The notes beneath the pieces were generated by a model. The model had not been told where the DNA came from. It worked only from the letters and a program-made list of their open reading frames with translations, and did not search any database. The translations under genes were made by a program, and so were the position numbers. Below are positions 7,931-56,517 of a stretch of 64,000 bases of DNA, one piece after another (position 1 is the first letter of the stretch; the number at the start of each line of letters is the position of its first letter). This DNA comes from a bacterium (lineage in GTDB: Bacteria; UBA10199; JADFYH01), in NCBI GenBank assembly GCA_046346885.1, contig JAXMHI010000003.1, positions 93-64,092 of the forward strand, written 5' to 3'.

Positions 7931-8257
7931 ATGAGAAAAGTCATATTTTTGTGTTTGCTTGCCGCTTTTTCCGCCGCGGGTTGCTCGCGGAAAGCCACGG
8001 ATGAAAACGTCACCGCCAAAGTGGCTGAGGCGCTCTGCGCGAAAATGAAAGAATGCTCCCCTCAAGCGGCCATGCCGGGAGATACTTGCACCAATATGCT
8101 TAAGGTTTCCCTCTTAAAACCCCTTCAGGCCCACGGCAAAAGCGGAAAAGTGACCGAAAAGGAATTAAATGCCTGCGTGACGGAGGTGAAAGGCTTCAAC
8201 TGCCAAACCTTTTCGGGCCTAACCAACCCCGTGGCTTGTAGTTTCTTCAAGGAATAG
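7931..8257 (+). CDS. Small Cys-rich lipoprotein (108 aa)
   Basis: Internal ATG of ORF 7475..8257. MRKVIFLCLLAAFSAAGC carries a lipobox, and GAGGAG lies upstream. The 5' part of the tracked ORF is antisense to the usp gene. Confidence 0.65.
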   Translation: MRKVIFLCLLAAFSAAGCSRKATDENVTAKVAEALCAKMKECSPQAAMPGDTCTNMLKVSLLKPLQAHGKSGKVTEKELNACVTEVKGFNCQTFSGLTNPVACSFFKE

Positions 8258-8726
8258 TCGCTACGCAAGGCGGGAAGGTTCCGCCGCAAGGTACGGCGAT
8301 GGCGGTCGTTTGGCTGAACTCCGCTCCCACCACTTGCCGAAGGCCGATGATGTCGTTGGGTTGAACGACGTCCACCCTTAAATTGTTGAAGGAGCCGTCT
8401 GGATTTACGGGCACCTCGGCCGTGAAGGTTTGGGCGAGGGCCGGCCTCAAGAAGATCTTTTTCCAAAGCGAACAAGTCGTGTGATTGCAGTTGTTAGCCT
8501 GGACGGCGGCTCCCGATTGGACGGGCGTGGGAATGGCGCCCGGAGCGCCGTTGATGGTGACGGCTCCCGTGGAATCGGGCGGGGAAGCGGTCATTAGGTT
8601 GGCGACGGGCGCGGGAATCGAGGCGGGAGGCGCCGCTCCTCCTCCGCAACCGCTTAACGAGAATACATGACTTAAGAGGAGTAAGAAAAACGAAATGAAT
8701 AAAAAGACGCGCGTTTTCTTCATCAT
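8247..8726 (-). CDS. Lipoprotein, hypothetical (159 aa)
   Basis: Signal peptide plus lipobox: MMKKTRVFLFISFFLLLLSHVFSLSGC. Confidence 0.65.
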   Translation of the reverse strand: MMKKTRVFLFISFFLLLLSHVFSLSGCGGGAAPPASIPAPVANLMTASPPDSTGAVTINGAPGAIPTPVQSGAAVQANNCNHTTCSLWKKIFLRPALAQTFTAEVPVNPDGSFNNLRVDVVQPNDIIGLRQVVGAEFSQTTAIAVPCGGTFPPCVATIP

Positions 8727-8784: not shown

Positions 8785-8820
8785 TGAAGAAAAGGTCCCT
8801 GTCTTGTCGACAGGGACCTT
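8785..8820 (-). terminator. Rho-independent terminator after 8844..10334
   Basis: 10-bp stem GGTCCCTGTC/GACAGGGACC with loop TTGTC, followed on the minus strand by TTTTCTTCATTTT. Confidence 0.6.
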
Positions 8821-8843: not shown

Positions 8844-10334
8844 CTAAGACAGGGAGCGCCCGGTCTTATGACGGTAGAGGAAGAATCCCAGGACCGACAT
8901 GAAAATACCGAAGAGAAGAGTCAAGCCTCTGGCCGACACCGGATTTCCGGCATTCAGAGAACAGCCGCCGCTGCTGCTCATTCCGTCGAAGGGATTTCCA
9001 GGAATCGTCTTTCTGGCCGCGATGGTGAGGGGGGATTGCTCGAGATCGATTCCCAGCCAAGATCCTCCTTGCGGAGTCAGTTCCGTGGCTGATTTTCTCA
9101 AAAGCTCCGCCAGGTTTAGAGAGCCCGAGGAACCAAAAAGCGCGATTTCATGGCTGTTGTCGCCGAAAAAGGCGTCCCATTTCGCGATTTCGACGCCGTA
9201 GTCGGGAGTGGAGGGCGAGTAGACGCCCGAGGCTTTCATCAGTCGGCTTACGAGGTCCACTTCCTCGGGGGGCAGGCAGGCCTTTCCCTCTGTTCCGCAA
9301 TCGGAGATGAATTTATTGAAGCGGTCTAGCGTCAAGTTGGGGAAAGCCGCATTTTGTCCCACGAGCGCCGGGTAGTTGATCGCTTCGATTTTTTGCTGAG
9401 CGGATTGGAAGGACTGAATGCCTTGCTGCAAAAGATTTTCCGCTTCGGTGATCTTGTTCTGATCCGCTCCGGGCAGGCTTCGTTCCTTTTCGAATGCTTG
9501 ATAGGCCTTTTCGACGGCGACTTCAAGATTCGATCCGGCCTGCCCGATGCCGTCCACGGGAGATTGCAGAGCCGTGTTTTGCAAGACATCCGAGAATGCG
9601 ACGAGGTTTGATGGAAAGGTGTTAAGTTCCGTTTTCAGGTCGCTGACGGCATTCAAAACTTCTTGATCTCGTCCCGCGGAATAGGCGGCCGCGCCCCTCG
9701 CAAACCCGATGAACATCCGAACTTCCTGCGACAAGAATTGAAGGGACTTGTCTCCCATGTCGCCCGCTGCATGGAAATCGTCCACCGTCATAGTTTGGCC
9801 GCTTCCGATGGAGACCAATTCCGGGATGAGCTGGTTCACCTCGTCGTCGGTGGCGGGGACGTAGATCGGGCCGTTGCCCACGTTCATGGCGCTGACGTCG
9901 CAAACGGGATCCCAACACCAGGAAATCAACCAGTCCGCGCCTTGTCCGATGAGTGTTCCGGCGGTAGCTCCGGCAAGGACCGCCGCGGCGACTCCGGAAA
10001 CGGTGGTGGCGGTGGCCAGCGTGGCTTCCGCCGCCGTGACGGCTGCGGCCGCCGATTCCATAGCCGCGACGGTCTCCGCCGTGGTTGCGGCGGCGGCGTT
10101 CGCAGCGGCGAAGGCCGCTTGGGCCGTCGCCAAGTCTTGTTTAGCCGCAGCGAGAGCTGCCGCCGCGGTGGCGACGGCGGCAGCAGCCGTTTTTGCCGCA
10201 TCCGCGAGGTAAGCCGTGTAGCTTTTGGCTTCATTCCAAAGACCGTCGGCCTTTGACGTGGCCACGCTTCCGAGGCTCGTATAAAGAATGAGCGCCGTTG
10301 CCACGGCTTTTCGAATTTTTGATTGAATGGACAT
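8844..10334 (-). CDS. Secreted Ala-rich protein (496 aa) with a C-terminal sorting-signal-like tail
   Basis: Signal peptide, then about 100 aa of poly-Ala/Thr coil. The C-terminus SSSGGCSLNAGNPVSARGLTLLFGIFMSVLGFFLYRHKTGRSLS is Gly-Gly-Cys, a TM helix and a basic cluster. GGAGG RBS present. Confidence 0.8.
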   Translation of the reverse strand: MSIQSKIRKAVATALILYTSLGSVATSKADGLWNEAKSYTAYLADAAKTAAAAVATAAAALAAAKQDLATAQAAFAAANAAAATTAETVAAMESAAAAVTAAEATLATATTVSGVAAAVLAGATAGTLIGQGADWLISWCWDPVCDVSAMNVGNGPIYVPATDDEVNQLIPELVSIGSGQTMTVDDFHAAGDMGDKSLQFLSQEVRMFIGFARGAAAYSAGRDQEVLNAVSDLKTELNTFPSNLVAFSDVLQNTALQSPVDGIGQAGSNLEVAVEKAYQAFEKERSLPGADQNKITEAENLLQQGIQSFQSAQQKIEAINYPALVGQNAAFPNLTLDRFNKFISDCGTEGKACLPPEEVDLVSRLMKASGVYSPSTPDYGVEIAKWDAFFGDNSHEIALFGSSGSLNLAELLRKSATELTPQGGSWLGIDLEQSPLTIAARKTIPGNPFDGMSSSGGCSLNAGNPVSARGLTLLFGIFMSVLGFFLYRHKTGRSLS

Positions 10335-10384: not shown

Positions 10385-10400
10385 TGCAGGCCGAATGCCA
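10385..10400 (-). promoter_or_regulatory. sigma54 (-24/-12) promoter for 8844..10334
   Basis: The minus strand reads TGGCATtcggcCTGCA. GG-to-GC spacing matches the consensus TGGCAC-N5-TTGCW exactly. It lies about 50 nt upstream of the ATG at 10334. Confidence 0.65.
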
Positions 10401-10549
10401 GTAAATCTAATTAATTGATATTAGTTATATTTTTAAAATTAAGAATAAATTTAAATTAAAAATAAACGTTTATTTTTTATAAAATACATTTATTGAATTT
10501 AAATTTGAATGCGATTTACTTTTAAAAATGTTCATTTAAAATTCCTTCT

Positions 10550-13500
10550 ATGAGTCCCGTCACGGGTCAAATCGACAACCGCTATTCTGTTATCCGCATG
10601 TTGGGTGAAGGGTTCACGGGAGAAGTATATTTAGTGGAGTCTTCGGAAGGCCGTTTCGCGCTGAAACTTCTCAAGCCCTTTTCCGATCGGCGTCTCGAGG
10701 AAAGCATCATCCGTGCTTTTAAATTCGAGTTCGGTTTTTTGAAGGATTTGAGACACCCGAACGTGGTCCGTATCCAAGATTTCGGGTTCGACGATACGCT
10801 AAGACGGTTTTACTTTACCGAAGAATATCTCGACGGGAAGCCGCTCAACGATTTTTGCAAGGGCGCCTCCCCCGAGCTGATCGGAAACCTTTTCATCCAA
10901 TCGATCGAGGGACTCCAAGCAATTCATCGGGCCCATATTCTTCACGGCGACCTTAAAGGCAGCAATCTTCTGGTGATCGAAGAGGAAGGCGGTCCGGTTA
11001 TCAAGATCATCGACTTGGGCCTTTCCGATCCCCGTTTTCCCTTTACCGCCGGTACGCCCTCGACGATGGCGCCGGAGAAGATTTTGAAAGACCACGTGGA
11101 CGAGCGCTCCGATCTTTATTCGTTGGGAGTGGTCTTCTACCAGATCTTCACCGGATCAAATCCCTTCATCGGGAAAAACGTGAAGGAGACTTACCAAGCC
11201 CATCTCGCTCTGAGACCGCCCAAGATCACCTTGAAAAATCCCCAGGTACCTTCTTATTGGAACGAGATTTTCGACTGCCTGCTCGAGAAGAACCCCGCCC
11301 ACCGCTACCGGGACGCGGGCGCGCTGCTCGAGGCTATCGACTTCGCCAAGCCGCAAAAAGCGGGGAAGAAAAAAGTAAAGCCCTGGCGGCCCGAGCGTTG
11401 GGTGGGGCGCGAAAAGATCGTTGAGGAAGTGAGCGGGAAGCTGAAGGCGTTCTTCGAGAAAAAAAACGGCCCCGCGAAGGTTTTATTGCTCTTGGGCGAG
11501 AAAGGGGTGGGGAAAAGCCGCATCGTACAGGAAGTGAAGTATCTTTTCCAAATGGAGAAAGTGGAAGTGTTCGAGTCGAAACCGGGCAGCCTCTTTCCCC
11601 CGTCTTCGGAAGAGCCTCTTCTATGGGTGGTCGACGAGGGATCGCGTTTTTCGCCGGAGGAGCGGTCGCAGATATTAATCAAGATGGAAAAAAATTCCCC
11701 GTCTTGGGCGGCGCTTCTCTCCCTTTTGCCGGAGGAGGGGGAAGATCTCCTTTCCGACTTCGAGAAAAAGGGGGTCGAGGTTTCCAGCGTCACCGTTCGC
11801 CCCTTCACGCGCGAGGACTTAAACGAGTTTTTGAAGGAGCTCACCGACGTGAAGGAGGTTCCCGATCCGTTCTTGGACGGCTTGTGGGAGAAGACTCACG
11901 GCAATCCCCGTCTGGTGATCGGCCTGCTTGAACACTTGGTCGCGGACAAACGGCTGGTCGACGCCCGCGGCCATTGGAACCTTTCCATTTTCAAGGAGGG
12001 CGGCTTCGATCTGAGACCCTTGCCCTTGGACCTCTCCGAGATCGACCAAGCTTTGGTCATCTTGCCTGCGGGCGATCACAAGAATCGCACCGAATTGTGG
12101 ATCAAGCGCAGCGAAGAGCTCCTTAAAAAGAATTTGATCGACGAAGCGAGCGAGTCGTTAAAAAAAGCGGAAGAGGAAACCCAAAAGGTTCAGGACCTCT
12201 CCCAAAAACTCCACTTCCGCTCGCGCATCTACGAGAAGGAGGGGTGGAAGCTCATCCGCGAAGGCCACTTCGACGAGGCCCACAACCGCATGGAGCGGGC
12301 CCTCGCCCTCTTGGAAGAAAGCACGGTGATGGACGAGGTGCTTGAAATCCGCCTCCATAATTTCGTTGCTTGGCTCTATTGCCAGGAGGGAAAGTTCGAC
12401 GAGGCCATCACGCTCTTCGAGGAACAGCAGCGTCGTGCGGAAAAACTTCCCCCTGCCGAACAGCAGCGCGTCCTCAATAACGAATTGGGGCAGGCGTATT
12501 TGATGAAAGGGGATCTGAAGCGGGCGATTTTCTTCCTCGAGGCGGCCTTCGATTTTTACGAGAAGGTCGGCGACTTGCCCAGCCGCATGAAGGGGCTCTA
12601 CAACTTGGCGGAAGCGCACGCGCAGGCCAAAGATTATTCCAGGGCGATCCAGTATTATCTGAAAGCCGCCGAGATGTCGCGATTCCACCGCAACTTCGAG
12701 CTTTTGCTGCGTGCCTACAATGGCTTGGGGAAAACTTTCCACCTTCAAGGGAACTACAACGAGGGCTTGAGTTATTACGAGCGCGCCTTGGAACTTGCCC
12801 GCTATCTCGAAGATTATTTGAGCGCCGCGGCCATCGCGCAAAACATCGGTTCCATCCAGTCGGAGCGTGGGGATTTCGAACCCGCCGATGCCCACTTCGA
12901 GCTTTCGCTCAAGATGCTGCGCAAGCTTTCCCAATTGAACGCCCACGCCAAATACCTCATCTGCCGAGCTTTGCTGGAGAAGGGCGATCTCTACCGCAAG
13001 CAGAAGAAATTCAAGGACGCGGAAGAGCTGATCCGCGACGCTTTCCAGCTCACCCAACAGGAAAGCTCCCTCGCTTCGTTCCGTTTCTGGGTGCTCTACA
13101 CCCAGTCGCAGTTGGAAAGAGACCAAGGGAATTTCGAGAAACTCAAAGACCTCATGGCCGAGCTGATGCCTCTGGCCGACGACGGCGAGAAGCGGGATCG
13201 TTGCCGCGAGTTGCTGCAGGACAAAACGATGACGCCGGTAGTGGCCCCTGCAGAAATCCATCGCACCCGCGCCGAAGCCATTCCCGCCTCACCTTCCCGT
13301 TCGGGGGCCTTGGAGGCCTTGATTCGGGTGGCGCGCTGGCTCGCCTCCGAAAAGGATCCCGAGCGGCTCTTGCCCCTCATCATCCGCCAGGCAACCGAGC
13401 TTTCCGGGGCGGAGGCGAGGTCGTGCTCTTGGAAGACGCGGGAGGCAAGATGGTCCCGCGCGCGAGCGTAAATTTGAGTTTGAACGAAACGCTCGCCCAG

Positions 13501-15079
13501 ATGAGCCAGAAGATGGCCGCTCAGGTTCTGGCTACGGGAGAGGTATTGCAGACGGGCAATGCCCAGCAAGACGACCGTTTCCGCATTTACGAATCCGTGG
13601 TGGATTTGGGGCTTCAATCGATTCTCGCCCTGCCCATCCGCAGCGAAAATCGGGTGATGGGCGTTCTCTCCCTGGTGCACCGCCACCGGATGAACGCATT
13701 TCAGGACGTCTCTCTCGAGCTCATGCTCGCCTTCGCCGACCAGGCGGGGATTGCGCTCGAGAACGCCCGTTTGGTGAAGAGCTTGGAAGAGGCGCAAGGT
13801 CGCCTGTCTAGGGATCTCCAACAAACCCAAGAAGAGCTGGATGAGGTCCGCCGGAATATTTCCGGGGCCGAGGTGCTCAAGCGTTTCATCGGCGAGAAGC
13901 TCATCAGCGGAAACAAGGCGATGGGCGAGTTGTTCAGCGTGGTGGAACGTCTGCGCGACACCGATCTTTCCGTGTTGCTTCATGGCGAATCGGGGACGGG
14001 CAAAGAACTTATCGCCCGCTCCCTCCACCGCAAGTCGCGGCGCGCTGCGAAGCCGTTCGTGGCGGTGAACTGCGCGGCCTTGCCGGCCAACCTCATCGAA
14101 AGCGAGCTCTTCGGTTACCGGGCCGGCGCCTTTACCGGGGCCACGCGAGACAAGAAAGGGCTCATCGAGGCGGCCCACGAAGGCACCCTCTTTCTCGACG
14201 AGATCGCCGAACTCGAATTGCCCCTGCAAGCCAAGCTGCTGCGCGTGCTCGAAGAGCGGGAGGTGACGCGCTTGGGGGACGTGAAACCCGTTGCCGTCGA
14301 TTTTCGCCTCATTTCCGCTTCGCACCGGAACTTGAAGGAAGAGATCGTCCTGCAGAAATTCCGCGAGGATCTTTTTTACCGCATCTGTGAGATCGAGCTA
14401 AAATTCCGCCGCTGCGCGAGAAAGGAAGATATCCCGCTGTTGGCTCAGGCCTTCATCGACGAATATCTCGGCAAAGAAGGGGGCGCAAAGAGAAGAAGGA
14501 GGAGGAGGAGAGGTGCGTTTAAGGAGGGATCTCTTAAAGCTTCTCATCGATTATTCTTGGCCCGGCAACTGAGGGAGTTGGAAAATGTGATTCGCGTCGC
14601 CACGGCGCTGCGCAAAGGGAGCATTTTGCACACCGAAGACGTTCCCGAAAGCGTGCGGGCTTCGTGGGGCGATGCGAAGAAAAAGGCATCGGCGATCTCC
14701 CCGCCGGAACCCCTCGCGACTTTTCCCCAAACGCCTCTCCTTCCACTTTGTTCGACCCGAAAAAAAGTTGGCAAGAAATGGAGACGGTGGCCCTCGCCAA
14801 ATCCCTCCTCCATTTTGGTTTCGACGTGAAAAAAGCCTCGGAGGCCTTAGGCTGCGCGGTTTCGAAGCTCTATCAGCGGATGCGGGAGTACGGGCTCGAA
14901 AAGCGGAAAGATGAATTTCAAACCCATCCTTTCATTTATTCTCCCAAGAGAGCTTCTTTGGAAACCCTCAAGCGGCAAGTGTTTGCGGGGCTTTAAAATA
15001 TTGTGAGAACAGCCCCTATCAAGCCGCCCGCCTTTTGAAAGTGAGTCCGGGGATGGTGTATCAGTGGATGCGTTCTTAA
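10550..15079 (+). pseudogene. Ser/Thr kinase - P-loop NTPase - TPR - GAF - sigma54 AAA+ - HTH regulator (EBP1), broken by at least 5 frameshifts (sequence error or pseudogene)
   Basis: Parts lie in ORFs 10550..13471, 13201..14829 and 14664..14996, plus an untracked tail ending LKYCENSPYQAARLLKVSPGMVYQWMRS* at 15079. It is collinear with intact paralog 46612..51369. Motifs: HGDLK, GEKGVGKS, GESGTGKE, GAFTGA (14125..14142), and DYSWPGN/RELENV split by a frame change. Confidence 0.8.
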
Positions 15080-15091
15080 CTTTCCTGGACC

Positions 15092-15105
15092 TTTACAATT
15101 TGTAT
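15092..15105. promoter_or_regulatory. Candidate activator (UAS) palindrome TTTACAATTTGTAT
   Basis: ACA-N3-TGT core about 93 nt upstream of the sigma54 -24 element at 15191. Same core as boxes 15421, 51407 and 56502. Confidence 0.35.
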
Positions 15106-15190
15106 CCTTAAAGGTTACAACCCGCGCGATAAAAGTAATTCATCCCCGCCTTATTTTTAAAAACCTAAATATTTTCAATGAGTTAATTTT

Positions 15191-15206
15191 TGGCATTTCC
15201 ATTGCT
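15191..15206 (+). promoter_or_regulatory. sigma54 (-24/-12) promoter
   Basis: TGGCATttccaTTGCT, with exact consensus spacing. Confidence 0.65.
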
Positions 15207-15215
15207 TTTAAGAAG

Positions 15216-15398
15216 GGGTGCACACGCAAAGTCATGGGGATGACTTTGGATGGAAAAAACTGGCCTGGGGAAAATATAGAAGGATGGCAAAAGAATTGAG
15301 AAGTTTCTGGCCCGAGAAAGGCTCGGACAGAAAAAAACAACCTAAGCCCTCCTCACTGAAAACGGCCTTTGTCAAAAGCAAAGGCCGTTTTGTTTTTT
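15216..15398 (+). ncRNA. Candidate sigma54-dependent small RNA (about 180 nt), or a very small ORF transcript
   Basis: Bounded by the sigma54 promoter at 15191 and an intrinsic terminator at 15359..15398. Internal hairpins are AAGTCAT-GGGG-ATGACTT and CCGAG-AAAGG-CTCGG. An unpaired CCCTCCTCA lies just before the terminator. No convincing RBS-plus-ORF is present. Confidence 0.4.
15359..15398 (+). terminator. Rho-independent terminator
   Basis: 13-bp stem AAAACGGCCTTTG/CAAAGGCCGTTTT with loop TCAAAAG, followed by a TTTTGTTTTTT tail. Confidence 0.75.
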
Positions 15399-15420
15399 GG
15401 ATTATCTTGTGCACTCGAAT

Positions 15421-15434
15421 TATACATTTTGTAA
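15421..15434. promoter_or_regulatory. Candidate activator (UAS) palindrome TATACATTTTGTAA
   Basis: ACATTTTGT core about 72 nt upstream of the sigma54 -24 element at 15499. Confidence 0.35.
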
Positions 15435-15498
15435 ATAGATTGTGCGTTATGGAATCTAATAATTTTAATAAATCGAATAAAATCAATAAGTTAAAATT

Positions 15499-15514
15499 TG
15501 GCATCCATGTTGCT
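15499..15514 (+). promoter_or_regulatory. sigma54 (-24/-12) promoter for 15563..16000
   Basis: TGGCATccatgTTGCT with exact consensus spacing, about 50 nt upstream of the ATG. Confidence 0.65.
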
Positions 15515-15562
15515 TTATAGAAAAGTGTCTCCACATGAGACAAGAAAGAGAAGGAGAAAATT

Positions 15563-16000
15563 ATGGCGACGAAAACGATGGGTTTAAGCTTTCATGACGG
15601 TAAATGTTACGCGCAGCAATTCGTGGATAATGGAAAAGGCGGAAAAGATTATCGTGAAGTGGAATGGGATTTAGCGAAGGGCAAGCCGGTGGTGCATACG
15701 CCGGAGAAAAAATCGGCGGAGATGGCGAAGGCCAAGGGCGGACTTTCCACTCTCGTGGGCGGCGGAAAACCCGCGACCACCCCTAAGAAGAATCTTTTCG
15801 ATCCTAAGCACCATAAACCGCAGTTCGCTTCGCCGACTTTCATGGCGGACGTGAAGGCGAATGCGACTCCCAACAAAAAGGGCAAGGTGGATGCTCCCGT
15901 GGTGAAACCGCTCACGGCCCCCGAAGTGACGCCCACCCCGATGACGAGATACGCGCTCGCCCACGGCACCTCGATCGGCTACGCGAAGAAGTCTGCTTAA
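15563..16000 (+). CDS. Lys/Pro-rich hypothetical protein (145 aa), no signal peptide
   Basis: ATG with an AAGGAG RBS 7 nt upstream. A terminator follows the ORF. I recognise no domain. Confidence 0.7.
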   Translation: MATKTMGLSFHDGKCYAQQFVDNGKGGKDYREVEWDLAKGKPVVHTPEKKSAEMAKAKGGLSTLVGGGKPATTPKKNLFDPKHHKPQFASPTFMADVKANATPNKKGKVDAPVVKPLTAPEVTPTPMTRYALAHGTSIGYAKKSA

Positions 16001-16042
16001 TTTTTGAATGGTCAGGTAGCGGCAAGGAAACTTGCTAAGAAG

Positions 16043-16082
16043 ACCCCGCGCAATCGTATGGTTCGCGGGGTTTTGCTTTTTT
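16043..16082 (+). terminator. Rho-independent terminator
   Basis: Stem CCCCGCG/CGCGGGG followed by TTTTGCTTTTTT. Confidence 0.6.
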
Positions 16083-16695
16083 ATTCCATGAGGACCGGGA
16101 GCAAATGAGGATCTATGCCTTCGGCGGTGAGGATTTTAAAGGTGGTGTCGAAGGCGTAAGGGATTTTCCAGAGGGCTCGATCGAAGATTTCCGGGTAAAG
16201 CTTCTTGAACCCCATCAAATAAAACCCTCCTTCTTGCGTGGGGCCGAATACGGCGTCTTCGTCTTTTAAAATCTCGAAGGCCTGCATGAAATGAGGTCGG
16301 CCGATGGAGGGCCGGTGGGAGGCGCCGAGCACGACCCTCTCGTAACGTTCGAACATGGTTTTGAAGATGTTTTCGAGCCGGTTGCCGAGAAAATCCCCTC
16401 GCTGAGGGGAAAGGCGAGGACTGAAAGCCATTTTCTTGTACTCCGCGACGGGGTAACGCGGGTCATAGAAGGCCAAGGCTTCATATTCTTTTCCGACGGG
16501 CCGGCAGCCGAGGAATGTTTTGCTCGCTTGTTCGAAAAAATGGGCAATGGCCTCTTCATTTCCTTCGCGCGTGGAGGAGCGGCGGTTCCAAGGGCCGTGA
16601 AGGGGCGAGGGGAGGAAAAGGGCCAAGCCGCATTCCTTCTTTTTCTTATGCGAAGAGGGGAGTGGCTTCTTTTTTTTGTGGGCGTGGTTTTTCAA
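16081..16695 (-). CDS. DUF2064-like (putative glycosyltransferase-fold) protein; start uncertain (TTG at 16695 assumed)
   Basis: The 3' third of tracked ORF 16081..17370. The C-terminal GPTQEGGFYLMGFKKLYPEIFDRALW...AFDTT resembles my recollection of the DUF2064 pattern (DGGYyLlGl...lF..i.Ws...v...T). The upstream part of that ORF is out of frame and overlaps dedA. Confidence 0.45.
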   Translation of the reverse strand: MKNHAHKKKKPLPSSHKKKKECGLALFLPSPLHGPWNRRSSTREGNEEAIAHFFEQASKTFLGCRPVGKEYEALAFYDPRYPVAEYKKMAFSPRLSPQRGDFLGNRLENIFKTMFERYERVVLGASHRPSIGRPHFMQAFEILKDEDAVFGPTQEGGFYLMGFKKLYPEIFDRALWKIPYAFDTTFKILTAEGIDPHLLPVLME

Positions 16696-17339
16696 TTTTC
16701 TTCCTTTTCGACGGGAATCTCGAAGTCTTCTTCCTTCGGTTCGGGGGCTTTTTGCCGCAAGCGGCTGATGACTTTGAAGCCGATGAAGAGAAAAAAGAGA
16801 GCCGCGATCACCCAAATGCCGTGTTCCACCCGCTTCACCCACACGATCAGTTGATCCAATTCTCCCCCGAAATGGTAGGCCAAATAGGTGAGGAGCGGGA
16901 TGGAGAGCAACGCGGCCGCTCCGTCGAAAAGGGCCATTTTTGAGAAGGGGATCTTGAAGGCTCCGGCGCTCAAGAAGATCGGCGCCCTGAGCCCCACCAA
17001 AAAGCGCGCGAAAAAAAGCGTGCGGCTCCCGTATTGATGGAAATAGTGGTTGATGGCCTTCACCCGCTTGGGCGTGAAAAGCCAGGTGAGGCGCCGGTGG
17101 GCGATGATATCCGAGCCGTAGCGCCGGCCGATTCCGTAGAGCAAGAAGTCGCCGATCATGGCTCCCGCGTAAAGAACGATCAGGGTAGGCAAGAAACGGG
17201 TTTCCCCTAAATAGGCCAGGTAGCCGCCGGTGATGATGACCAGGTCTTCCGGCAGGGGAAGGCCCGCGCCGCAAAGCAGGAGAATGACAAAAAGCCCTTG
17301 ATAATGATAGTCCCCGATGTGTTGAAGGATGGTCTCCAT
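16692..17339 (-). CDS. dedA: DedA/SNARE-associated family membrane protein
   Basis: 215 aa and multi-pass hydrophobic. Contains the DedA-type motif GLPLPEDLVIITGGYLA. Confidence 0.8.
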   Translation of the reverse strand: METILQHIGDYHYQGLFVILLLCGAGLPLPEDLVIITGGYLAYLGETRFLPTLIVLYAGAMIGDFLLYGIGRRYGSDIIAHRRLTWLFTPKRVKAINHYFHQYGSRTLFFARFLVGLRAPIFLSAGAFKIPFSKMALFDGAAALLSIPLLTYLAYHFGGELDQLIVWVKRVEHGIWVIAALFFLFIGFKVISRLRQKAPEPKEEDFEIPVEKEEN

Positions 17340-17373
17340 GGAGCGGAGAAAAGCATAGCAGCTCGTTCATAAA

Positions 17374-18420
17374 ATGTTTACACGAGATTTTTCATTCGAG
17401 TACCCGCAAGAATTGGTCGCCCAAGAGGGCCTCGCCGAGCGCGACGCCTCGCGCATGATGGCGCTCGACCGAGGCCGTCAAACCATTGCCCATCGGGTGT
17501 TTCGCGACTTACCTTCTTACTTCAATAAAGGCGACCTGCTTTTGCTCAACAACACCAAAGTCCTGCCCGCCCGGCTGTGGGGAAGGAAAAAGTCCGGCGG
17601 AAAGGTGGAGATCTTGCTCATCCGCCCTTGGCGAGGGCAGGCGTGGGAGTGTTGGGTCCGCTCTCTCAAGGGTTTGCAAGACGGAAGCGAGATTTTATTT
17701 TCAAGAAACGGCGCCGACTTCGCCGCCCGATTGCGTTTCGAGCCGGAAGAGAACCTAAAGACGATCGAGTTTCCTCCCGACGTTCCGGTTCTCGATTTCA
17801 TGCGCGAGCAAGGGGCGGCCCCTCTCCCGCCTTACATTAAGCGTCCGGAACCCCGAGTCGGCGACCGCGAACGCTATCAAACCGTCTTTGCCGAAAAAGA
17901 AGGGGCGATCGCCGCGCCGACCGCGTCGCTCCATTTTACGCCCCGAATCTTGAAAGAGCTTTCCGAGAAGGGAGTGGAAATTCGATATCTCACCCTTCAC
18001 GTGGGCATCGGCACCTTCCAGCCGGTCACCTCGGAAAATGTGGAGGATCACCGGATGCAGGAAGAGTTTTACGAGATTTCCGAAGAAACGGCGGAGGCCG
18101 TTCGGTGGGCAAAACGGGAAGGCCGCCCGGTGACGGCCGTCGGGACCACTTGCGTGAGGGCGGTAGAGTCTTATTTTCAAGATCCTTCCGTCGTTCCACC
18201 ATCGCCGGGGACGCTTCTCTCCACGCGGCTTTTTATCCATCCCGGCTATTCTTTCCAAATCGTCGACCGCTTTCTCACCAATTTCCACCAGCCGGAATCG
18301 ACTCCCCTTTTCTTGACGAGCGCCTTCGCGGGAAAAGAATTCCTCTTCCGCGCCTACGCGGAAGCGATCCGAGAGAAGTATCGCCTCTTCAGCTACGGCG
18401 ACTGCATGTGGATTTTCTGA
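17374..18420 (+). CDS. queA: S-adenosylmethionine:tRNA ribosyltransferase-isomerase
   Basis: 348 aa. FDFxYPxELIAQ-like N-terminus, VLPARL, PLPPYI and HFTP motifs, typical length. Confidence 0.9.
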   Translation: MFTRDFSFEYPQELVAQEGLAERDASRMMALDRGRQTIAHRVFRDLPSYFNKGDLLLLNNTKVLPARLWGRKKSGGKVEILLIRPWRGQAWECWVRSLKGLQDGSEILFSRNGADFAARLRFEPEENLKTIEFPPDVPVLDFMREQGAAPLPPYIKRPEPRVGDRERYQTVFAEKEGAIAAPTASLHFTPRILKELSEKGVEIRYLTLHVGIGTFQPVTSENVEDHRMQEEFYEISEETAEAVRWAKREGRPVTAVGTTCVRAVESYFQDPSVVPPSPGTLLSTRLFIHPGYSFQIVDRFLTNFHQPESTPLFLTSAFAGKEFLFRAYAEAIREKYRLFSYGDCMWIF

Positions 18421-18450
18421 AAATAAAAAAGGCCCCTTGCGGGGCCTTCT
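18421..18450. terminator. Bidirectional hairpin terminator between queA and 18504..19016
   Basis: AGGCCCC-TTGC-GGGGCCT, flanked by an A-run upstream and a T-containing tail downstream. On the minus strand it reads as stem plus TTTTTTATTTT. Confidence 0.6.
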
Positions 18451-18503
18451 AAAACTTTTCTCTTTTTTCCTGACCTTCTAAAGAGGGGTTTTAAACAACG
18501 TCG

Positions 18504-19016
18504 TTACATCTGCGGATCGGAAAGCGTCGCTTTCAAGGTCTTGAGCATTTGCGGATCGGAAAGCACCGTCTGCAAGGCCTTGATCATTTGGGGATCGGAA
18601 GCGGCCATCGTCTTCACCACGTTGTACATCTTCTCGTCGGCGAGCAGGGTGTTCACCGCGGTATCCTTGTCCATCTGGGGATCCGAAGAAGCGAACTCTT
18701 CTCCCTTGATCATCTGGGGATCGGAGGCCGTCAACATTTGAGGATCGGACGCGACGAGCATTTGAGGATCGGAAGAAACGGCGTTGGCCTTGATCATTTG
18801 GGGATCCGATTCCACCGTCTTTTCCAAGGGCAACATCTGAGGATCGGAATAAGCCCGCACCGCCTTATTCATTTGGGGATCCGAAAAGAATTGATTGAGC
18901 GCGCCGTAGAGAGTCGGTTTCGCCGCCCGAACCGTCGCTTGTCCTGAGAAGGCTTTTCCTTGGGCTCCCACCGTCGCAACCACTAAAGCTACTGCAACTA
19001 ACCACTTCCTGACCAT
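18504..19016 (-). CDS. Secreted repeat protein with 10 copies of the pentapeptide SDPQM (170 aa from the internal ATG)
   Basis: Signal peptide MVRKWLVAVALVVATVGAQG. An AAAAGGAGAAG RBS precedes the ATG at 19016. SDPQM recurs 10 times and the protein ends exactly in ...LSDPQM*. Confidence 0.8.
   Translation of the reverse strand: MVRKWLVAVALVVATVGAQGKAFSGQATVRAAKPTLYGALNQFFSDPQMNKAVRAYSDPQMLPLEKTVESDPQMIKANAVSSDPQMLVASDPQMLTASDPQMIKGEEFASSDPQMDKDTAVNTLLADEKMYNVVKTMAASDPQMIKALQTVLSDPQMLKTLKATLSDPQM
18507..18884 (-). repeat. Coding repeat: 15-nt unit TC(N)GATCC(N)CA(R)ATG, 10 copies, irregularly spaced
   Basis: On the plus strand, CAT(C/T)TG(C/A/G)GGATC(C/G)GA recurs 10 times between 18507 and 18884. 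Confidence 0.85.
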
Positions 19017-19069
19017 TTTACTTCTCCTTTTAACAAGGGTTATCAAAATCAACTGCTCCCCATTGCATA

Positions 19070-19085
19070 AGCAAATAATTTGCCA
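19070..19085 (-). promoter_or_regulatory. sigma54 (-24/-12) promoter for the SDPQM repeat gene
   Basis: The minus strand reads TGGCAAattatTTGCT with exact consensus spacing, about 55 nt upstream of the ATG at 19016. Confidence 0.65.
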
Positions 19086-19331
19086 AAACTTTTATTTTTA
19101 AAAAATGATATATTTTAATTAGTTATGAGTTTTTTGGAGAAAAGGGAAAGGGGAGTGAGTTCCCCATGGTAGGAGGGCAAGATTTGTTCCAAAATGTTAA
19201 TAAATAAATAATATTATATAGTTAAGTTGTTTTTTGTTCACAATTGAGCAAAAATGAAAATGATGGGCATACACCCCATTTTGAGATATCTTTTTGTAAA
19301 AAGTGAAAGATTTAAAGAGGTTGAGAGAGGA

Positions 19332-22300
19332 TTAGGGAGGAGGAAACTCAATCACCAAACGAAAGGTTCCATTGTATTCATCGGCCACATCCATATGGAC
19401 GTAAGTTCGAGAACAAGGGAGGGGTTGATTGCCTGAGGGAGTTCTCACGGATGCACCGGACATGACGATCGCATCGTTTTCCGCCACCGTGGAAGTAAAC
19501 TCACGCACGTTTCCAATCAAATCCAGTAGTCTTTGAATCCGGCCCTGCGCGTCCCGATATCCAAAAATGGAAAAGTCTCGGTAAAGGTCGGGGCCTAAAG
19601 GATGGGTGCCGATGGGGTGGGAATGGGTTCCTTTATCTAGATCGGCGTGTACCAGACGCGAAGCGAAGAAAGTTCTGCGGTAACGGTAACCCCATGGGAA
19701 GGACCAATCGAAGGTGTTGCGGGCGGCGATCTCTTTTTGTTCCGCAGAGACGATCTTGTAATTCCGTCGGTCGCGCACCGACCTCCAGTATCGATAAGCG
19801 TCCGCCGCTCGGTACGGAATTGCATGAATGGGTTGATTGTTCAAGATGGGGTCGCCACGGAGCGAGGGATGACTCGTGGGATCCGCAAGAGTAAAGATAC
19901 GATTTTGACCTTCTCCTTCGGACCGGATCCTCCAGTGGAACCGGGCGCCTTCGAACGCGGTTGCGAGAACCGATTCCCAGTCGGGGTTTTCGGGAAGGTT
20001 CCGGGGAGAGATCCGAGGTTGATCCCGCGGGATCAAATTTCTCAGCCGTTCAATGTGTCGGAAGGCCTCTTCGAATCGCCCTTGTCCGACCAGATGATTG
20101 ATTCCCCTCAATTGGCTTTCGATGAAGAGGCGGTATTCCCCCACGGTGATGGGATTGGAAATGGCGAAGGTGTTGAAGGAATGGGGGCGTTCCGGAAAAC
20201 TGATGACGAGGGCGGGGTCGTCGAAGCGATAGATATTATGTCCGATGACGCCTTTTCCGCCATGAACGAGTGAGAAGCCTTCGGGAACCGGCGGGGTCAA
20301 GCGCAGGTTCAAGTTTAGGGAACCCCGAGTGGCCGAACCCCGGTTTAAGATTCCTTGTCGAACTTGCGGAAGTGTGATGCGCAGAGGATAACGCATAAAC
20401 GCATAATCGGGATGCGATAGCTCGAGCACGTAGTACCCTGCCGGCAAGTTGAGTCGGTCTTGAATGTCGCTTAAGTTTCCTTCCAGAAGGGGAGCCCCTT
20501 CCCGGAAATAATCTTTTTCATATTCTTCGATGGGAATCACCCGCGCTTGGACATTTTCAGGGGTCATTTGGGGGTTTAAGTGGTCGGATATTTTTAATTG
20601 AACGCGGATTTGTCCTTCCAGCGCGTCCTTCATGCTGGTGGTGCGCTCGTTTTCCGTCGCCACGTCGTATTCGCGGATACGGTCGATGAGGGTTTGGCGC
20701 ACCTCGTCGGGCATCGTGTTGTCGGCATTGACGAGCCTCATCCAAGAGAGTTCGGCGATCATCTTTCTCGCCTCGGGCACGGGATCGGAATCGGTCAAGC
20801 GTCTGAGTTCCTGCACCGCGCTTTCCACCGCCTGGTCGAAGGCCGCCGGAATGTTCTTGAGGGCGTACAGAGGATCCAACATGCGTTTTTCCAAGTCTTC
20901 AGTGATCGGACGGTCGGTGCGATATTCACTCCAAGCGGCGTGAAGTTCTTGTTCCAGAGACCTGCGTCTTTCCAGCAGGCGGCGGATACGGATCATTTCG
21001 GCGCGGCCCCAAACAAGCAAAAGCGCCTCGCGTAATTTGCCGGCCGATTCAAAGCGTCGGGTCGGATCCGGGTCTAAGGCCCTTCGGCAGACTTCCTCGA
21101 TTTTATCGTAAAGTTCGAGTGGGTAGTCTCCCTGTATGACGTCCCGAAAGGCCGGGGGCTGCAGGAAGAAGTCGGGATGGGTGGAGAAGAAGCGTGCCTG
21201 TGACCCGTTTCTCCCATGGGTAAACGGGTTCTGCCCCGTTATCATTTCATACAGGATGGCACCCAAGGCGAAAACGTCGATGGAGCGCGGGTTTTCAATT
21301 TTCCGGTTTAGAAACCTCTCGGGGGCGATATAGCCTGGTGTTCCAAAAGAGACGCCCACCAGGGTAATGTCCTTTTCAAGGCGGTGAAAAAGTTCCGGAG
21401 AAACTTCTGGTCGGGGTTCGGCGGGAAGTTCCTCGAACGCTTTAGCCAAGCCCCAATCGACGATCCGGACCTCGCCGGTATCGGTGATACGGATATTGCC
21501 GGGCTTCAAGTCGCGGTGGACGATGCCGTCTCGGTGGGCGGATTCGATCCCCTCGCAAATGCGTAGAAAGATGTCGAGCTTCCTTTGGGCGCTGAGCGTC
21601 GACATCACGTCCGAGAGGTCGTTGCCGGGCAGGTATTCCATCACAGGAACGGTACGGCCATTGGGGAGCGTGATGAAGTCGTAGATCACGACCACGTGCC
21701 GTCGATCCATATTGGCGGTAATTTTTACCTCGTTGCGAAAACGAGCGTCCACTTCCACCGTATCTTTTTGGCTGCGATCCCGTTCGGGGCGCGGCACTTT
21801 GATCACCGCCAGACGCTCCAATTGCAGGTCTCTTACCTTGATCACGTGTCCGTAGCCGCCGGAGCCTAGATAATCCAATACTTGGTAGCGGCCTTCCAAC
21901 TCCATTCCCACTTGCAAGCCGGTTTCTTCCGGAGGAAGTCGCGTGACCAAGGATTGGGCTTCTTTTCGAGTGTCATGGTCGACGTCGGTCGGGTCTTGGG
22001 GGGCTTCCGGAGCTGGAGAAGGGGCCGCTTTTTGCCGAGGAACGGGAACGGCCACTCGTGTTTGGGCTTCTTGGGGGTCTTTGGCCGGGGAAGCAGCGGG
22101 GGAAGGAGGAGGAATTTCCGGGCGTTGTTCCACGACTTCCGCCGCCGGAGCGTCTAACGTGGTTGCGAGTTTCGGATCGGCGGGAGGAGTCGCCGGACGA
22201 GGGGGTGAGGGAGGAGAGTCCTTCCCCGCCAATTCGGGCGGACCGCCGACCATCGTAGTGGTGGCGGGTGCGTCGCGATTCGTGGGGAAACCGCTGTCCG

Positions 22301-23138: not shown

Positions 23139-23228
23139 AAGAAAAAAAGGGAAATGCCTGAAAAATAAAAAATTATTCGATTGCCCTTCCTCTTCGGCAA
23201 CGCTTAAGAGAAGGTGCGAGGAAATTTT

Positions 23229-24370
<1,142 letters not shown>

Positions 24371-45982: not shown

Positions 45983-46255
45983 CTAAAACTTCCGTTTCTG
46001 GGCTTCTTCCTCGTAATATTTTTTATATAAAATTTCCCACTCGCGGGATCCTTCCGGAACGCCCCGTTTTAAAGAAACGATCTTCTGCCGAACCGCATCG
46101 TCGATTTGGTCGTCGGTCTGAAGATAGTGGAGAACGGTCTGCTTGATCACCTTTAAGGCTTCGTCTTCGTCGGAATAATCAAGCAAGTCGTCTTTATAAA
46201 GACCGTCGCAGACCAAATGGCAGAGATGCGAAATTCTTTCTTCGGAGAGTTTCAT
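45983..46255 (-). CDS. DUF507 family protein
   Basis: 90 aa (MKLSEERISHLCHLV...); paralogous to the adjacent gene. Confidence 0.65.
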   Translation of the reverse strand: MKLSEERISHLCHLVCDGLYKDDLLDYSDEDEALKVIKQTVLHYLQTDDQIDDAVRQKIVSLKRGVPEGSREWEILYKKYYEEEAQKRKF

Positions 46256-46262
46256 ATCTTTA

Positions 46263-46544: not shown

Positions 46545-46611
46545 GGGTGATAGGCATCCTGCCTTGTTTGAAGAGGGCTGGCAAGAAGGATTGTCGACGT
46601 TTTGATGGTTC

Positions 46612-51406: not shown

Positions 51407-51422
51407 ATTCACATTTTGTGAT
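51407..51422. promoter_or_regulatory. Palindromic box ATTCACATTTTGTGAT upstream of EBP2 (candidate operator or autoregulatory site)
   Basis: TCACA-N3-TGTGA, 38-53 nt upstream of the ATG at 51369. The same 16-mer occurs at 56502..56517. Confidence 0.4.
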
Positions 51423-51468
51423 CTAATGGCCGAGTGGTGATTTTAACTATATGAAATATATTATTTAT

Positions 51469-54940: not shown

Positions 54941-54976
54941 CTTTAAAAACGTCCCGCGAAAATTCGCGGGACGTTT
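54941..54976 (-). terminator. Hairpin between 55002..56336 and 53102..54901 (terminator or attenuator)
   Basis: AAACGTCCCGCG-AATTTT-CGCGGGACGTTT followed by TTTAAAG on the minus strand. Confidence 0.55.
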
Positions 54977-55001: not shown

Positions 55002-56336
55002 TTAAAAAAGATCCTTGATGTCTTTCCAAGCCTCTTTCGCCGCGTCTTTGGCGACGCTGATCATGGCGCCGTCTTGAGCTCCCTCATAGGCGCCGACGGG
55101 GCCGCCCAGGACGAAGCCGGTGACGGCGCCTTCCCAGCCGGCGTCAACGGCCGCGGATACGGTTTTTTTGAAAGTGCTTCGGTTGTCGTCATCTTCCGTC
55201 GGGTATTTGGCTTCGTTCATCCAGGAAGGTTTGTCGACTCCATGCGGAATCACCGCCTTGGGCAACTCCGTTTGCGGCCAGCCCGGCTCCTTGCTGAATT
55301 GGATTTGTCCCGTGGAGTTATTGACGACGTTGGAAGAGGATTGCCCCATCGTCACCACGCCCGGGTTGTTGTCGTCCGCCGTCGCCTTTGTGCCGTACAG
55401 GACCGTGAGAATTTTGGCCGTCTCTCCCGCCAACTGCGAACGGGCGTTCATTAGGGCCTTTCCGGCAGGGCCCTTGCCTTGGGTTTCGTCGTAGAGTTTT
55501 TTGAAGGAGGGACACACTTCCTTTTCCGGATCGTCGCTCTTTGCCTTGTCGTTGTATTTTTCACATTCGTCCTTGAGCTTGCCGGTCGCTTCGTCAAACT
55601 TCGCCGAGGCCGATTTCACTTCGTCCCTCATCTGCGTCAAGTTTTCGAAGGCGGGATCGTTTAAAAGCGCCGCCACTTGGGCATTGGGAGGTTGGGGGAG
55701 ATTCGCAGGGTCGAGATCGTATTTCTTGAAAAGGTCGACGATTTCTTCGTGAGAAAGGCCCGTCGTTTCTTCCATTTTTTTAACCGTCGAAGGTTTTGTG
55801 TTCGCGGCGTTTACTTTTTCTTGGAAGGTCTTGAATTGTTCCTGCACGTCCTTTCGGTTCGGATGGAGCTCCATCTGGTGAAGAAGCTTTCGCCCCTCCG
55901 ATTGAAAAGCCTCTTTCTCTTCTTCGTCCAAGTTTTTCATGCCTTCGATCTCTGAGATAAACTGTTCGGCGCTGTCTTGAAAAACACCGTCACGCTCCCC
56001 GCTTTCCAGGCTCTCCGCTTGGAGCGCATAAATTTTCCCCGCCAAGGCTTGGGGTAGAGGACCTTTTTGGTGGCCGATCTCCGCCAGAAGTTTCGGGACT
56101 TCGCGATTTTGAGGGGCTGAAGATTGAAGATCCTTCAATAAACTTCTTGCGTCTTCGTAGGTGAGAGGTACGGTGCCTCCGATTTTTTTCGAATCGCCTT
56201 GCGAATATCGGTCTTGCGAATCTCCGTCCTCAATATCGTTCAAGAAGTCTCCGTCTAACTCCCCAATATCCTCCATTTCCCAGTCGTCGTTTTGGGGTTG
56301 TGATCGGTATTGATTTCCATTCACGGCATTCGTCAT
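55002..56336 (-). CDS. Hypothetical acidic 444-aa protein, no signal peptide, Gly-zipper-like C-terminus
   Basis: Internal ATG at 56336 with a GGAGAGG RBS. The N-terminus is Asp/Glu-rich. The C-terminus is AVDAGWEGAVTGFVLGGPVGAYEGAQDGAM. Confidence 0.75.
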   Translation of the reverse strand: MTNAVNGNQYRSQPQNDDWEMEDIGELDGDFLNDIEDGDSQDRYSQGDSKKIGGTVPLTYEDARSLLKDLQSSAPQNREVPKLLAEIGHQKGPLPQALAGKIYALQAESLESGERDGVFQDSAEQFISEIEGMKNLDEEEKEAFQSEGRKLLHQMELHPNRKDVQEQFKTFQEKVNAANTKPSTVKKMEETTGLSHEEIVDLFKKYDLDPANLPQPPNAQVAALLNDPAFENLTQMRDEVKSASAKFDEATGKLKDECEKYNDKAKSDDPEKEVCPSFKKLYDETQGKGPAGKALMNARSQLAGETAKILTVLYGTKATADDNNPGVVTMGQSSSNVVNNSTGQIQFSKEPGWPQTELPKAVIPHGVDKPSWMNEAKYPTEDDDNRSTFKKTVSAAVDAGWEGAVTGFVLGGPVGAYEGAQDGAMISVAKDAAKEAWKDIKDLF

Positions 56337-56390: not shown

Positions 56391-56406
56391 AGCAAGCGGA
56401 ATGCCA
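56391..56406 (-). promoter_or_regulatory. sigma54 (-24/-12) promoter for 55002..56336 (and possibly 53102..54901)
   Basis: The minus strand reads TGGCATtccgcTTGCT with exact consensus spacing, about 55 nt upstream of the ATG at 56336. Confidence 0.7.
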
Positions 56407-56501: not shown

Positions 56502-56517
56502 ATTCACATTTTGTGAT
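56502..56517. promoter_or_regulatory. Candidate UAS palindrome ATTCACATTTTGTGAT
   Basis: TCACA-N3-TGTGA centred about 105 nt upstream of the sigma54 -24 element at 56391..56406. It overlaps the last codons of the PHP gene. Confidence 0.45.

Follow-up and report, generated by a model that had tools for sequence, protein, structure and literature searches.

The 64,000-nucleotide window analysed here (GenBank assembly GCA_046346885.1, contig JAXMHI010000003.1, positions 93 to 64,092; lineage UBA10199, JADFYH01) raises the question of whether five sites that resemble sigma-54 (RpoN) promoters are genuine, and whether they form one local regulon under two large kinase-fused activators encoded in the same stretch, as was claimed in an original prediction made from the letters alone. 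The activators belong to the bacterial enhancer-binding proteins (EBPs) and are termed EBP1 and EBP2 below. The best explanation overall, held with a probability of roughly 0.8, is that the window carries five genuine RpoN promoters of the -24/-12 type and two adjoining one-component EBPs, with two links between activator and promoter and one promoter that would drive a small RNA (sRNA). As a single local regulon, the five promoters were only partly supported by the comparisons made.

Predicted sigma-54 promoters

A search of the 64-kb window with the pattern TGGCA-N7-TGCW returned exactly the five sites that had been predicted:

10385..10400, minus strand: sigma-54 promoter P10385, TGGCATTCGGCCTGCA; predicted transcription start site (TSS) at about 10374, 5' untranslated region (5' UTR) of about 40 nt
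15191..15206, plus strand: sigma-54 promoter P15191, TGGCATTTCCATTGCT; predicted TSS at about 15217
15499..15514, plus strand: sigma-54 promoter P15499, TGGCATCCATGTTGCT; predicted TSS at about 15525, 5' UTR of about 38 nt
19070..19085, minus strand: sigma-54 promoter P19070, TGGCAAATTATTTGCT; predicted TSS at about 19059, 5' UTR of about 43 nt
56391..56406, minus strand: sigma-54 promoter P56391, TGGCATTCCGCTTGCT; predicted TSS at about 56380, 5' UTR of about 44 nt

Dinucleotide shuffles of the window gave 0.37 expected matches and none of 100 shuffles contained five. The intergenic part of the window (4,980 nt, 7.7% of the DNA) is AT-rich, with a GC content of 42% compared to 54% overall, and the intergenic bases were therefore also shuffled separately, which produced 0.034 expected matches and a maximum of 1 match in 2000 trials. 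The five sites were also the five best matches in the 64 kb to an approximate sigma-54 matrix, with 13.6-16.4 bits. Equally good matches in coding DNA, which the original prediction had named as evidence against the sites, were not found in the window, where the best coding match to the same approximate matrix had 10.7 bits.

In all five sites the GG and GC dinucleotides were exactly 10 nt apart (TGGCAC-N5-TTGCW). Comparison of their positions with the table of open reading frames (ORFs) showed that all five were intergenic and correctly oriented, each pointing at a gene or at a terminated short transcript. Four sites precede an ATG, and the gaps between the 16-mer and the ATG were 50 nt (10334), 48 nt (15563), 53 nt (19016) and 54 nt (56336), which is close to the 50-55 nt first proposed. 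A GGAG-type ribosome-binding site (RBS) was present before each of these four ATGs, in agreement with the claim of good RBSs. When the C of GC was set at -12, the predicted TSSs fell at approximately 10374, 15525, 19059 and 56380 with leaders of 38-44 nt, and the expected 5' UTR of about 40 nt was thus reproduced. Terminator-like hairpins were found after the 496-aa, SDPQM-repeat and 599-aa genes and, by eye, after the 444-aa gene; most units therefore look monocistronic.

Chance or base composition in the AT-rich intergenic DNA could in principle account for the same sites, as could a repeated element present in several copies, and both the low intergenic GC content and the partly T-rich motif would lend themselves to such a reading. 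However, the intergenic-only shuffles never gave five matches, the flanking sequences of the five sites were mutually unrelated, and the GG/GC spacing and position were conserved across species while the surroundings diverged. An artefact of this kind is considered extremely improbable.

Conservation of the P10385 promoter

P10385 lies divergently to the first activator gene:

10550..15079, plus strand: EBP1, about 1,510 aa, with Pkinase, AAA_16/STAND, TPR, GAF, Sigma54_activat and AAA_lid_14 domains and a helix-turn-helix (HTH)-like C-terminus

Orthologues of EBP1 (50-64% identity) were compared together with their flanks in six species-level loci (L002, L003, L005, L006, L007 and L012); L004 duplicated L003, L013 duplicated L005 and L015 duplicated L012. 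A metagenome scan with the EBP1 alignment gave four loci, of which one duplicated L005 and two came from one species, and the contig profile search via QueA for close relatives resulted only in a Terracidiphilus locus, 43% identical. The relatives are labelled Deltaproteobacteria bacterium. A GG-N10-GC element was found 44-52 nt before the start of the divergent gene in all six orthologous loci, as follows:

Window: TGGCATTCGGCCTGCA
L003: TGGCACTAACCCTGCA
L002: TGGCCTCCAACCTGCA
L005: TGGCGCGATTCCTGCT
L006: TGGCACCTTTTCTGCA
L007: TGGTCTGATTTCTGCA
L012: TGGACCCAAAACTGCA

Across the loci the spacers diverged, whereas GG, GC and an uncommon C at -14 (a CTGCW -12 box) were kept. In the window and L002 the first divergent gene belongs to an Ala-rich 'DWLISWCWDPVCD' family; in L003, L005, L006 and L007 it is of an unrelated family of about 550 aa, Cys-rich and lipoprotein-like with Gly/Pro runs. 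The second divergent gene, encoding a lipoprotein of about 150 aa, was at the same position in L002, L003, L005 and L007, and its counterpart in the window is:

8247..8726, minus strand: 159-aa lipoprotein-like gene, second in the divergent unit and conserved

Since the first gene varies while the promoter and the arrangement persist, what is conserved is the module of a kinase-EBP, a divergent sigma-54 promoter and a secreted protein.

When the window was pooled with nine distinct related loci, the 228 kb (7.7% of it intergenic) gave 20 matches of at least 13 bits, 17 of which were intergenic (binomial P of about 1e-16). Promoter conservation was demonstrated for P10385 only. The region downstream of EBP1 was not syntenic in any orthologous locus, and P15191 and P15499 lie in this ORFan region, for which the ORFan nature of the 145-aa gene behind P15499 left no comparative data. 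For P19070 and P56391, no orthologous region was present among the fetched loci.

The activator EBP1

The Sigma54_activat domain (PF00158) of EBP1 was detected with E = 2e-67 in the window and with E = 3.5e-69 in a second copy of the gene on contig L008. Pfam also showed numerous TPRs in the EBP1 region, TPR_MalT included. The GAFTGA loop was canonical in EBP1 and in all its orthologues, and Walker-type motifs GESGTGKE and DEIA were visible in the activators. The C-terminus of EBP1 showed two HTH-like segments of Fis type by eye, and PF02954 was present in the orthologues.

The locus and the activator identity proposed for 10550..15079 were confirmed, but a single ORF was not present in the window. 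The window copy has a stop at 13471, a frame break at about 13418 and at least five further shifts before 15079, and the NCBI annotation holds only an N-terminal fragment, a 973-aa 'tetratricopeptide repeat protein' (P0001). Taken at face value, these breaks and the truncated annotation would make EBP1 a decaying pseudogene and the neighbouring promoters orphaned relics. L008, from the Logan assembly of run SRR26348421, showed otherwise. This contig, which comes from the same organism, also encodes the 145-aa ORFan protein and was 99.8% identical over 10.5 kb to window positions 11013-21528. All 15 differences (12 indels and 3 substitutions) were within 13418-14989, with zero differences in the remaining 8.9 kb or so, and EBP1 of L008 is a single open frame with complete GAF, Sigma54_activat and AAA_lid_14 domains. 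Once the frame was corrected, all catalytic motifs of EBP1 were kept, and the orthologues are intact with 1,505-1,521 aa. Because an independent assembly gives the open and complete gene, EBP1 is intact in the organism and the window indels are an assembly artefact, to which the truncated NCBI annotation is due; the pseudogene hypothesis, very unlikely on this evidence, was rejected. Mis-polishing is a plausible cause, as the errors fall in the AAA+ domain and paralogues of that domain are probably numerous. The apparent pseudogene calls for caution in annotating this metagenome-assembled genome (MAG).

The activator EBP2 and the kinase-EBP family

The second activator gene is near P56391:

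46612..51369, minus strand: EBP2, 1,585 aa, intact, with Pkinase, STAND, TPR, GAF, Sigma54_activat (GSFTHA) and HTH_8 domains

Pfam searches gave E = 1.5e-69 for Sigma54_activat and E = 5.6e-5 for HTH_8 (PF02954). The C-terminal 500 residues of EBP2 aligned with NifA (PDB 9qq6), and its AAA+ core aligned with the structures of NtrC1, ZraR, PspF, FleQ and LuxO. EBP1 and EBP2 have the same architecture of Ser/Thr kinase, STAND NTPase, TPR, GAF, sigma-54 AAA+ and HTH, so that the claim of two sigma-54 activators beside their targets held in that both are bona fide kinase-fused EBPs by their domains and NifA-like half. By eye, the kinase domains of both activators retain the glycine loop, the lysine, HGD and D(F/L)G, and the kinases are therefore probably active.

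The sigma-54 contact loop was of two main kinds among the 79 collected kinase-EBPs in which the motif was found, with GAFTGA in 39 and GAFTHA or GSFTHA in 34. The loop of EBP2 is GSFTHA at residues 1310-1320 or thereabouts (window 47410-47445), which retains F and T but has H for the second G. GAFTHA/GSFTHA is a clade feature of the EBP2 relatives, proteins P0123-P0135 included. The kinase-EBP family is widespread in uncultured 'delta-like' bacteria and the fusion is already recognised in database annotation (JGI names). No experimental description of kinase-EBP fusions was found in the literature; such a fusion is reportedly mentioned in the Sorangium cellulosum genome paper.

Candidate enhancers

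Motifs upstream of the promoters offered candidate binding sites for both activators:

10515..10528, minus strand: candidate EBP1 enhancer (upstream activating sequence), TTTTTAAAAGTAAA, centre at about -147 from the predicted P10385 TSS
56504..56516, no strand (palindrome): candidate EBP2 enhancer, TCACAAAATGTGA, centre at about -130 from the predicted P56391 TSS
51409..51421, no strand (palindrome): candidate site of autoregulation, a second TCACAAAATGTGA copy that lies 40 nt before the EBP2 start codon

For EBP1, six of the seven orthologous regions carried TTTT-N1-2-AAAA between -135 and -162 relative to the predicted start. Among 2000 shuffles, 4 reached the same count with matches allowed anywhere, and none did so within the positional window, which was chosen after sight of the sequences. 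A longer form of the motif, TTTTNAAAAGTAAA, was common to the window, L003 and L012. Three copies of AAAAGTAAA occurred in the distinct related loci (about 165 kb), including one before a second promoter in L005, and each was followed on its own strand by a sigma-54 site 84-123 nt downstream. The motif fits better as an enhancer than as part of the activator's own promoter, because its distance to the sigma-54 element was stable and its distance to the activator ATG varied from 20 to 87 nt. The predicted link between EBP1 and P10385 is supported by the divergent arrangement in every orthologue and by this positionally conserved upstream motif.

For EBP2, the 13-nt TCACAAAATGTGA was found exactly twice in the window, inside a shared 16-mer ATCACAAAATGTGAAT, and these two copies were the only paired TGTGAW inverted repeats in the 64 kb. 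The locus of an EBP2 orthologue, 40% identical (L011), holds 28 TGTGAW copies, of which 10 are near two promoters. Upstream of the divergent promoter (16.8 bits) there were six direct TGTGAW repeats at about -107 to -170 (9817-9880) with a spacing of 11/14/11/11/11 nt, and two inverted TGTGAA pairs (18747-18797) were at enhancer distance from a second promoter of 17.4 bits. The paired palindrome copies in the window and the TGTGA arrays in L011 lead us to infer that TGTGA half-sites are what the EBP2 clade recognises, and that EBP2 acts on P56391 and also binds upstream of its own gene. The exact 16-nt shared palindromic element, together with the arrays in the orthologous locus, supports a probable link between EBP2 and P56391.

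Neither motif was found at enhancer distance from P15191, P15499 or P19070, with the sole exception of a TGTGAA half-site at -178 of P19070, and a search for 10-mers shared upstream of the five window promoters gave the EBP2 palindrome as the only convincing match. The activators of P15191, P15499 and P19070 were left unassigned because no shared enhancer was found and the 145-aa gene, an ORFan, offered nothing to compare. The local regulon of five promoters was thus supported for P10385 with EBP1 and P56391 with EBP2, and this support did not extend to the other three.

A reading whose odds come somewhat short of even accepts the sites as real and dispenses with the local regulon, so that P15191, P15499 and P19070, and possibly P56391, would be under EBPs encoded elsewhere, of which the genome probably has many. 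It agrees with the missing upstream elements at the first three, with the non-syntenic region downstream of EBP1 and its ORFan gene, and with further sigma-54 sites in related loci that are several kb from any EBP (L002 1874, L005 6808 and 23473, L016 4130); relatives formerly classed as Deltaproteobacteria are moreover rich in EBPs (PMC12316311). Against it, the divergent layout of EBP1 and promoter was kept in every orthologue, the exact 16-mer upstream of both P56391 and EBP2 is very unlikely by chance, and four strong promoters fall within 8.7 kb around a single EBP. The preferred reading retains local control for P10385 and P56391.

Two minor observations were made upstream of the SDPQM-repeat gene. 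The first is a further element:

19176..19191, minus strand: weaker sigma-54-like site, TGGAACAAATCTTGCC, 12.2 bits, intergenic, 106 nt upstream of P19070

It could be either a tandem promoter or a chance match. The second is an AT-rich block, AAATAAATAATAT ... ATATAGTTAA, common to 19205-19235 and 51440-51470 with a spacing that differs by 3 nt; the first copy precedes the SDPQM promoter region, the second EBP2. The block at 19213-19240 overlaps the best sigma-70-like promoter of the region.

A candidate short transcript downstream of P15191

No ORF with an RBS was found behind P15191. The unit begins 112 nt past the EBP1 stop codon and is bounded by a strong terminator, as the candidate sRNA of the original prediction would require:

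15217..15399, plus strand: candidate sigma-54-dependent sRNA of about 180 nt, with terminator and U-run and a stable predicted fold

The intrinsic terminator at 15359-15391 has a 14-bp GC-rich stem and a U-run. The fold of 15217-15399, made up of a hairpin at the 5' end, internal stems and the terminator, had a free energy of -58.8 kcal/mol (z = -3.35 compared to shuffles). A C-rich stretch, CCCUCCUCA, is just 5' of the terminator and may, as a speculation, pair with GGAGG ribosome-binding sites. Rfam gave no family for the candidate at gathering thresholds, nor at E <= 1 on 15100-15560, and no homologue was found in any fetched related locus.

Short RNAs of this kind were found beside EBP2 orthologues in two different MAGs. 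Sigma-54 promoters of 17 bits upstream of the activator genes in L009 (874-970) and L010 (7402-7496) precede a conserved RNA of about 70 nt that has a C-rich single-stranded stretch and a terminator with two compensatory pairs; a sigma-70-like TTGACY...CATAAA, the promoter for the activator, then follows. This RNA has no counterpart in the window. Given L009 and L010, sigma-54-driven small RNAs beside kinase-EBPs appear to recur in the lineage.

The transcript might alternatively be something other than a trans-acting sRNA, namely a leader of the 145-aa gene, or the product of a further promoter in tandem before that gene, with a terminator subject to regulation, or the mRNA of a 21-aa peptide (15235-15300). 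P15191 and P15499 are on the same strand, 308 nt apart, before one gene, which a leader would explain; the full-strength P15499 nevertheless follows the terminator, so read-through is not needed, and the terminator itself is strong. A 21-codon ATG ORF does lie within the transcript, but it has no Shine-Dalgarno sequence and every other driven gene has GGAG. The lack of an Rfam family or homologue means that covariation gives no support to an sRNA, yet the fold is more stable than shuffles and short terminated sigma-54 RNAs also stand beside EBP2 orthologues. These alternatives are judged rather unlikely, and a regulatory sRNA is the preferred reading.

Proposed mechanism

At promoters of this class the sigma-54 closed complex should do nothing by itself; it has to be remodelled, with the use of ATP, by a hexameric AAA+ EBP that is bound upstream. 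In the mechanism proposed here, EBP1 would drive the divergent P10385, and with it the Ala-rich secreted protein and perhaps the 159-aa lipoprotein, from TTTTNAAAAGTAAA at about -147. With the palindrome TCACAAAATGTGA at about -130 as its site, EBP2 would drive P56391 and with it the 444-aa protein; by binding the second copy before its own gene it would also regulate itself. The terminated RNA from P15191, about 180 nt long, would most likely be a regulatory sRNA, by analogy with pxr downstream of pxrR. P15499, before the ORFan gene, and P19070, before the SDPQM protein gene, would be sigma-54 dependent, their activators being unassigned. The kinase, STAND, TPR and GAF parts would set when the AAA+ ring may assemble.

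Several points weigh against this reading. The sigma-54 matrix was our own approximation of the published consensus, and its scores are indicative only. Profile searches showed no rpoN or Sigma54 domain among the proteins of the 64-kb window; we infer that rpoN is present in the genome from two intact GAFTGA-type activators and from the conserved promoters. P15191, P15499 and P19070 had neither comparative support nor an identified enhancer. For EBP1, the positional test of TTTT-N1-2-AAAA was post hoc, and an unbiased k-mer search of six EBP1 intergenic regions gave results indistinguishable from shuffles in this AT-rich DNA. For EBP2, the half-sites differ between TCACA-N3-TGTGA in the window and direct repeats or TGTGAA-N9-TTCACA in L011, the change of the second G of GAFTGA to H in its clade is at the loop that contacts sigma-54, and one EBP2 orthologue (L016) was without an adjacent sigma-54 site.

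Comparison with known systems

As members of the sigma-54/EBP system, the promoters are ordinary, and so are the GAF, AAA+ and HTH modules. As in NtrC/NifA systems, the promoters follow TGGCAY-N5-TTGCW with GG-N10-GC and the candidate upstream elements are at about -130 to -150; the activators share Sigma54_activat with GAFTGA (EBP1) and a Fis-type HTH (HTH_8, EBP2), and the NifA alignment (9qq6) covers about 500 residues. In contrast, about 1,000 extra N-terminal residues replace the receiver or simple sensor domain here, the EBP2 clade has GAFTHA/GSFTHA instead of GAFTGA, and the targets are lineage-specific rather than nitrogen, flagellar or stress genes.

In the LuxO-Qrr system of Vibrio, an EBP gene has a neighbouring sigma-54-dependent sRNA gene. 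The pxrR-pxr locus of Myxococcus xanthus likewise consists of an EBP gene, a sigma-54 promoter and a short terminated sRNA (PMC5684412), an order that is repeated in the window by EBP1, the predicted P15191 and the terminated transcript (15191-15399). The candidate sRNA differs from Pxr and Qrr in that it matches neither in sequence or structure, is not conserved in the loci examined and has an expression that is predicted only, and the EBP here is a kinase fusion rather than a two-component response regulator.

The N-terminal 950 residues or so of both activators have Pkinase, AAA_16 and TPR_MalT/TPR_12 as in the PknK/MalT STAND kinases, and one partial relative (P0047) is named 'serine/threonine-protein kinase PknK' by NCBI. 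The output here is GAF, sigma-54 AAA+ and HTH, rather than a LuxR-type or other sigma-70-class DNA-binding domain. Myxococcus also has sigma-54 promoters before non-housekeeping genes, EBP cascades and Ser/Thr kinase crosstalk (PMC4880591). The myxobacterial EBP networks (Nla) are similar in their many sigma-54 promoters, in EBPs that regulate EBP genes and in their links to Ser/Thr kinases; kinases and EBPs are separate there as far as described, whereas they are fused in one polypeptide here.

Since the promoters themselves are textbook biology, the value of the locus lies in their context. It is possible, though doubtful, that kinase-STAND-TPR-GAF-AAA+-HTH proteins are an uncharacterised class of giant one-component activators in which a eukaryotic-like Ser/Thr kinase and a STAND NTPase switch directly gate the sigma-54 activator, with private promoters, clade-specific enhancers (TTTTGAAAAGTAAA versus TGTGA) and a re-wired GAFTHA loop. 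If this were true, each giant activator would be paired with private promoters, behind which stand small RNAs and fast-evolving proteins that are secreted or ORFans. For kinase-fused activators of about 1,500 aa, the analysis provides a clean set of sigma-54 promoters backed by comparison, along with two motifs that are enhancer candidates. EBP1 with P10385 and EBP2 with P56391 form candidate triplets of promoter, activator and enhancer that could be rebuilt in a heterologous host to study control by the kinase and STAND parts.

Predicted target genes

Four genes stand directly behind the predicted promoters, and signal peptides were read by eye:

8844..10334, minus strand: 496-aa Ala-rich protein with signal peptide and C-terminal GGCS, transmembrane (TM) helix and basic tail
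8792..8820, minus strand: intrinsic terminator after the 496-aa gene, 12-bp stem with T-rich tail
15563..16000, plus strand: 145-aa Lys-rich protein, ORFan, without signal peptide
18504..19016, minus strand: 170-aa secreted SDPQM-repeat protein with signal peptide; terminator at 18427-18450
55002..56336, minus strand: 444-aa mostly helical protein of a rare family; terminator-like hairpin at about 54950-54975 (by eye)

None of the targets is a classical sigma-54 target. Taken together, the tagged surface protein, the ORFan, the repeat protein, the rare helical protein and the candidate sRNA suggest that sigma-54 serves accessory and fast-evolving functions in this lineage. The description of the targets as secreted applied to the 496-aa and SDPQM proteins, which have signal peptides, and not to the 145-aa and 444-aa proteins.

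The 496-aa protein had no Pfam, NCBIfam or PDB match. Two homologues were found in L002 (46% and 42% identity), both behind sigma-54-type sites. A tail of SGGCS/T, TM helix and Arg/Lys was present on differing secreted proteins (window 8844-8990, L002 2616-4124 and 197-1768, L005 22752-23429), all of them behind sigma-54-type sites, the two in L002 being paralogues and the one in L005 an unrelated protein. The tail resembles the MYXO-CTERM or GlyGly-CTERM sorting signals; none of the NCBIfam sorting-signal models matched it. L005 also encodes a rhomboid protease (18360-19523).

The 145-aa protein matched only itself among 5.8 billion clustered proteins and had no Pfam or NCBIfam match. The SDPQM protein had only sub-threshold Pfam matches and no NCBIfam match. 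The family of the 444-aa protein comprised 50 representative clusters in 1.84 billion proteins, one member having a LysM domain, and no Pfam or NCBIfam family above threshold and no PDB sequence match was found for the protein. Its confident AlphaFold2 model (pLDDT 81) showed a long helical bundle and a small beta unit, and a Foldseek comparison with the PDB gave no fold match (best E = 2).

Neighbouring genes

Directly upstream of the SDPQM gene, a 1,302-aa protein (19332-23240, minus strand) carries a Ser/Thr kinase domain at its centre and, in the C-terminal region, a weak FGE-sulfatase-like match below threshold; the window thus holds three large kinase proteins. At 45983-46637, two adjoining ORFs match the two halves of the Pfam model DUF507. 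A frameshift was rejected here because two stop codons in a row (TAATAA) and then a fresh ATG stand at the junction, and the halves look like two real neighbouring genes. Finally, tblastn with the intact 382-aa tRNA-guanine transglycosylase (TGT) of L005 showed a frame change at about 24011-24017 in the TGT gene of the window (23214-24340), which is probably another assembly indel.

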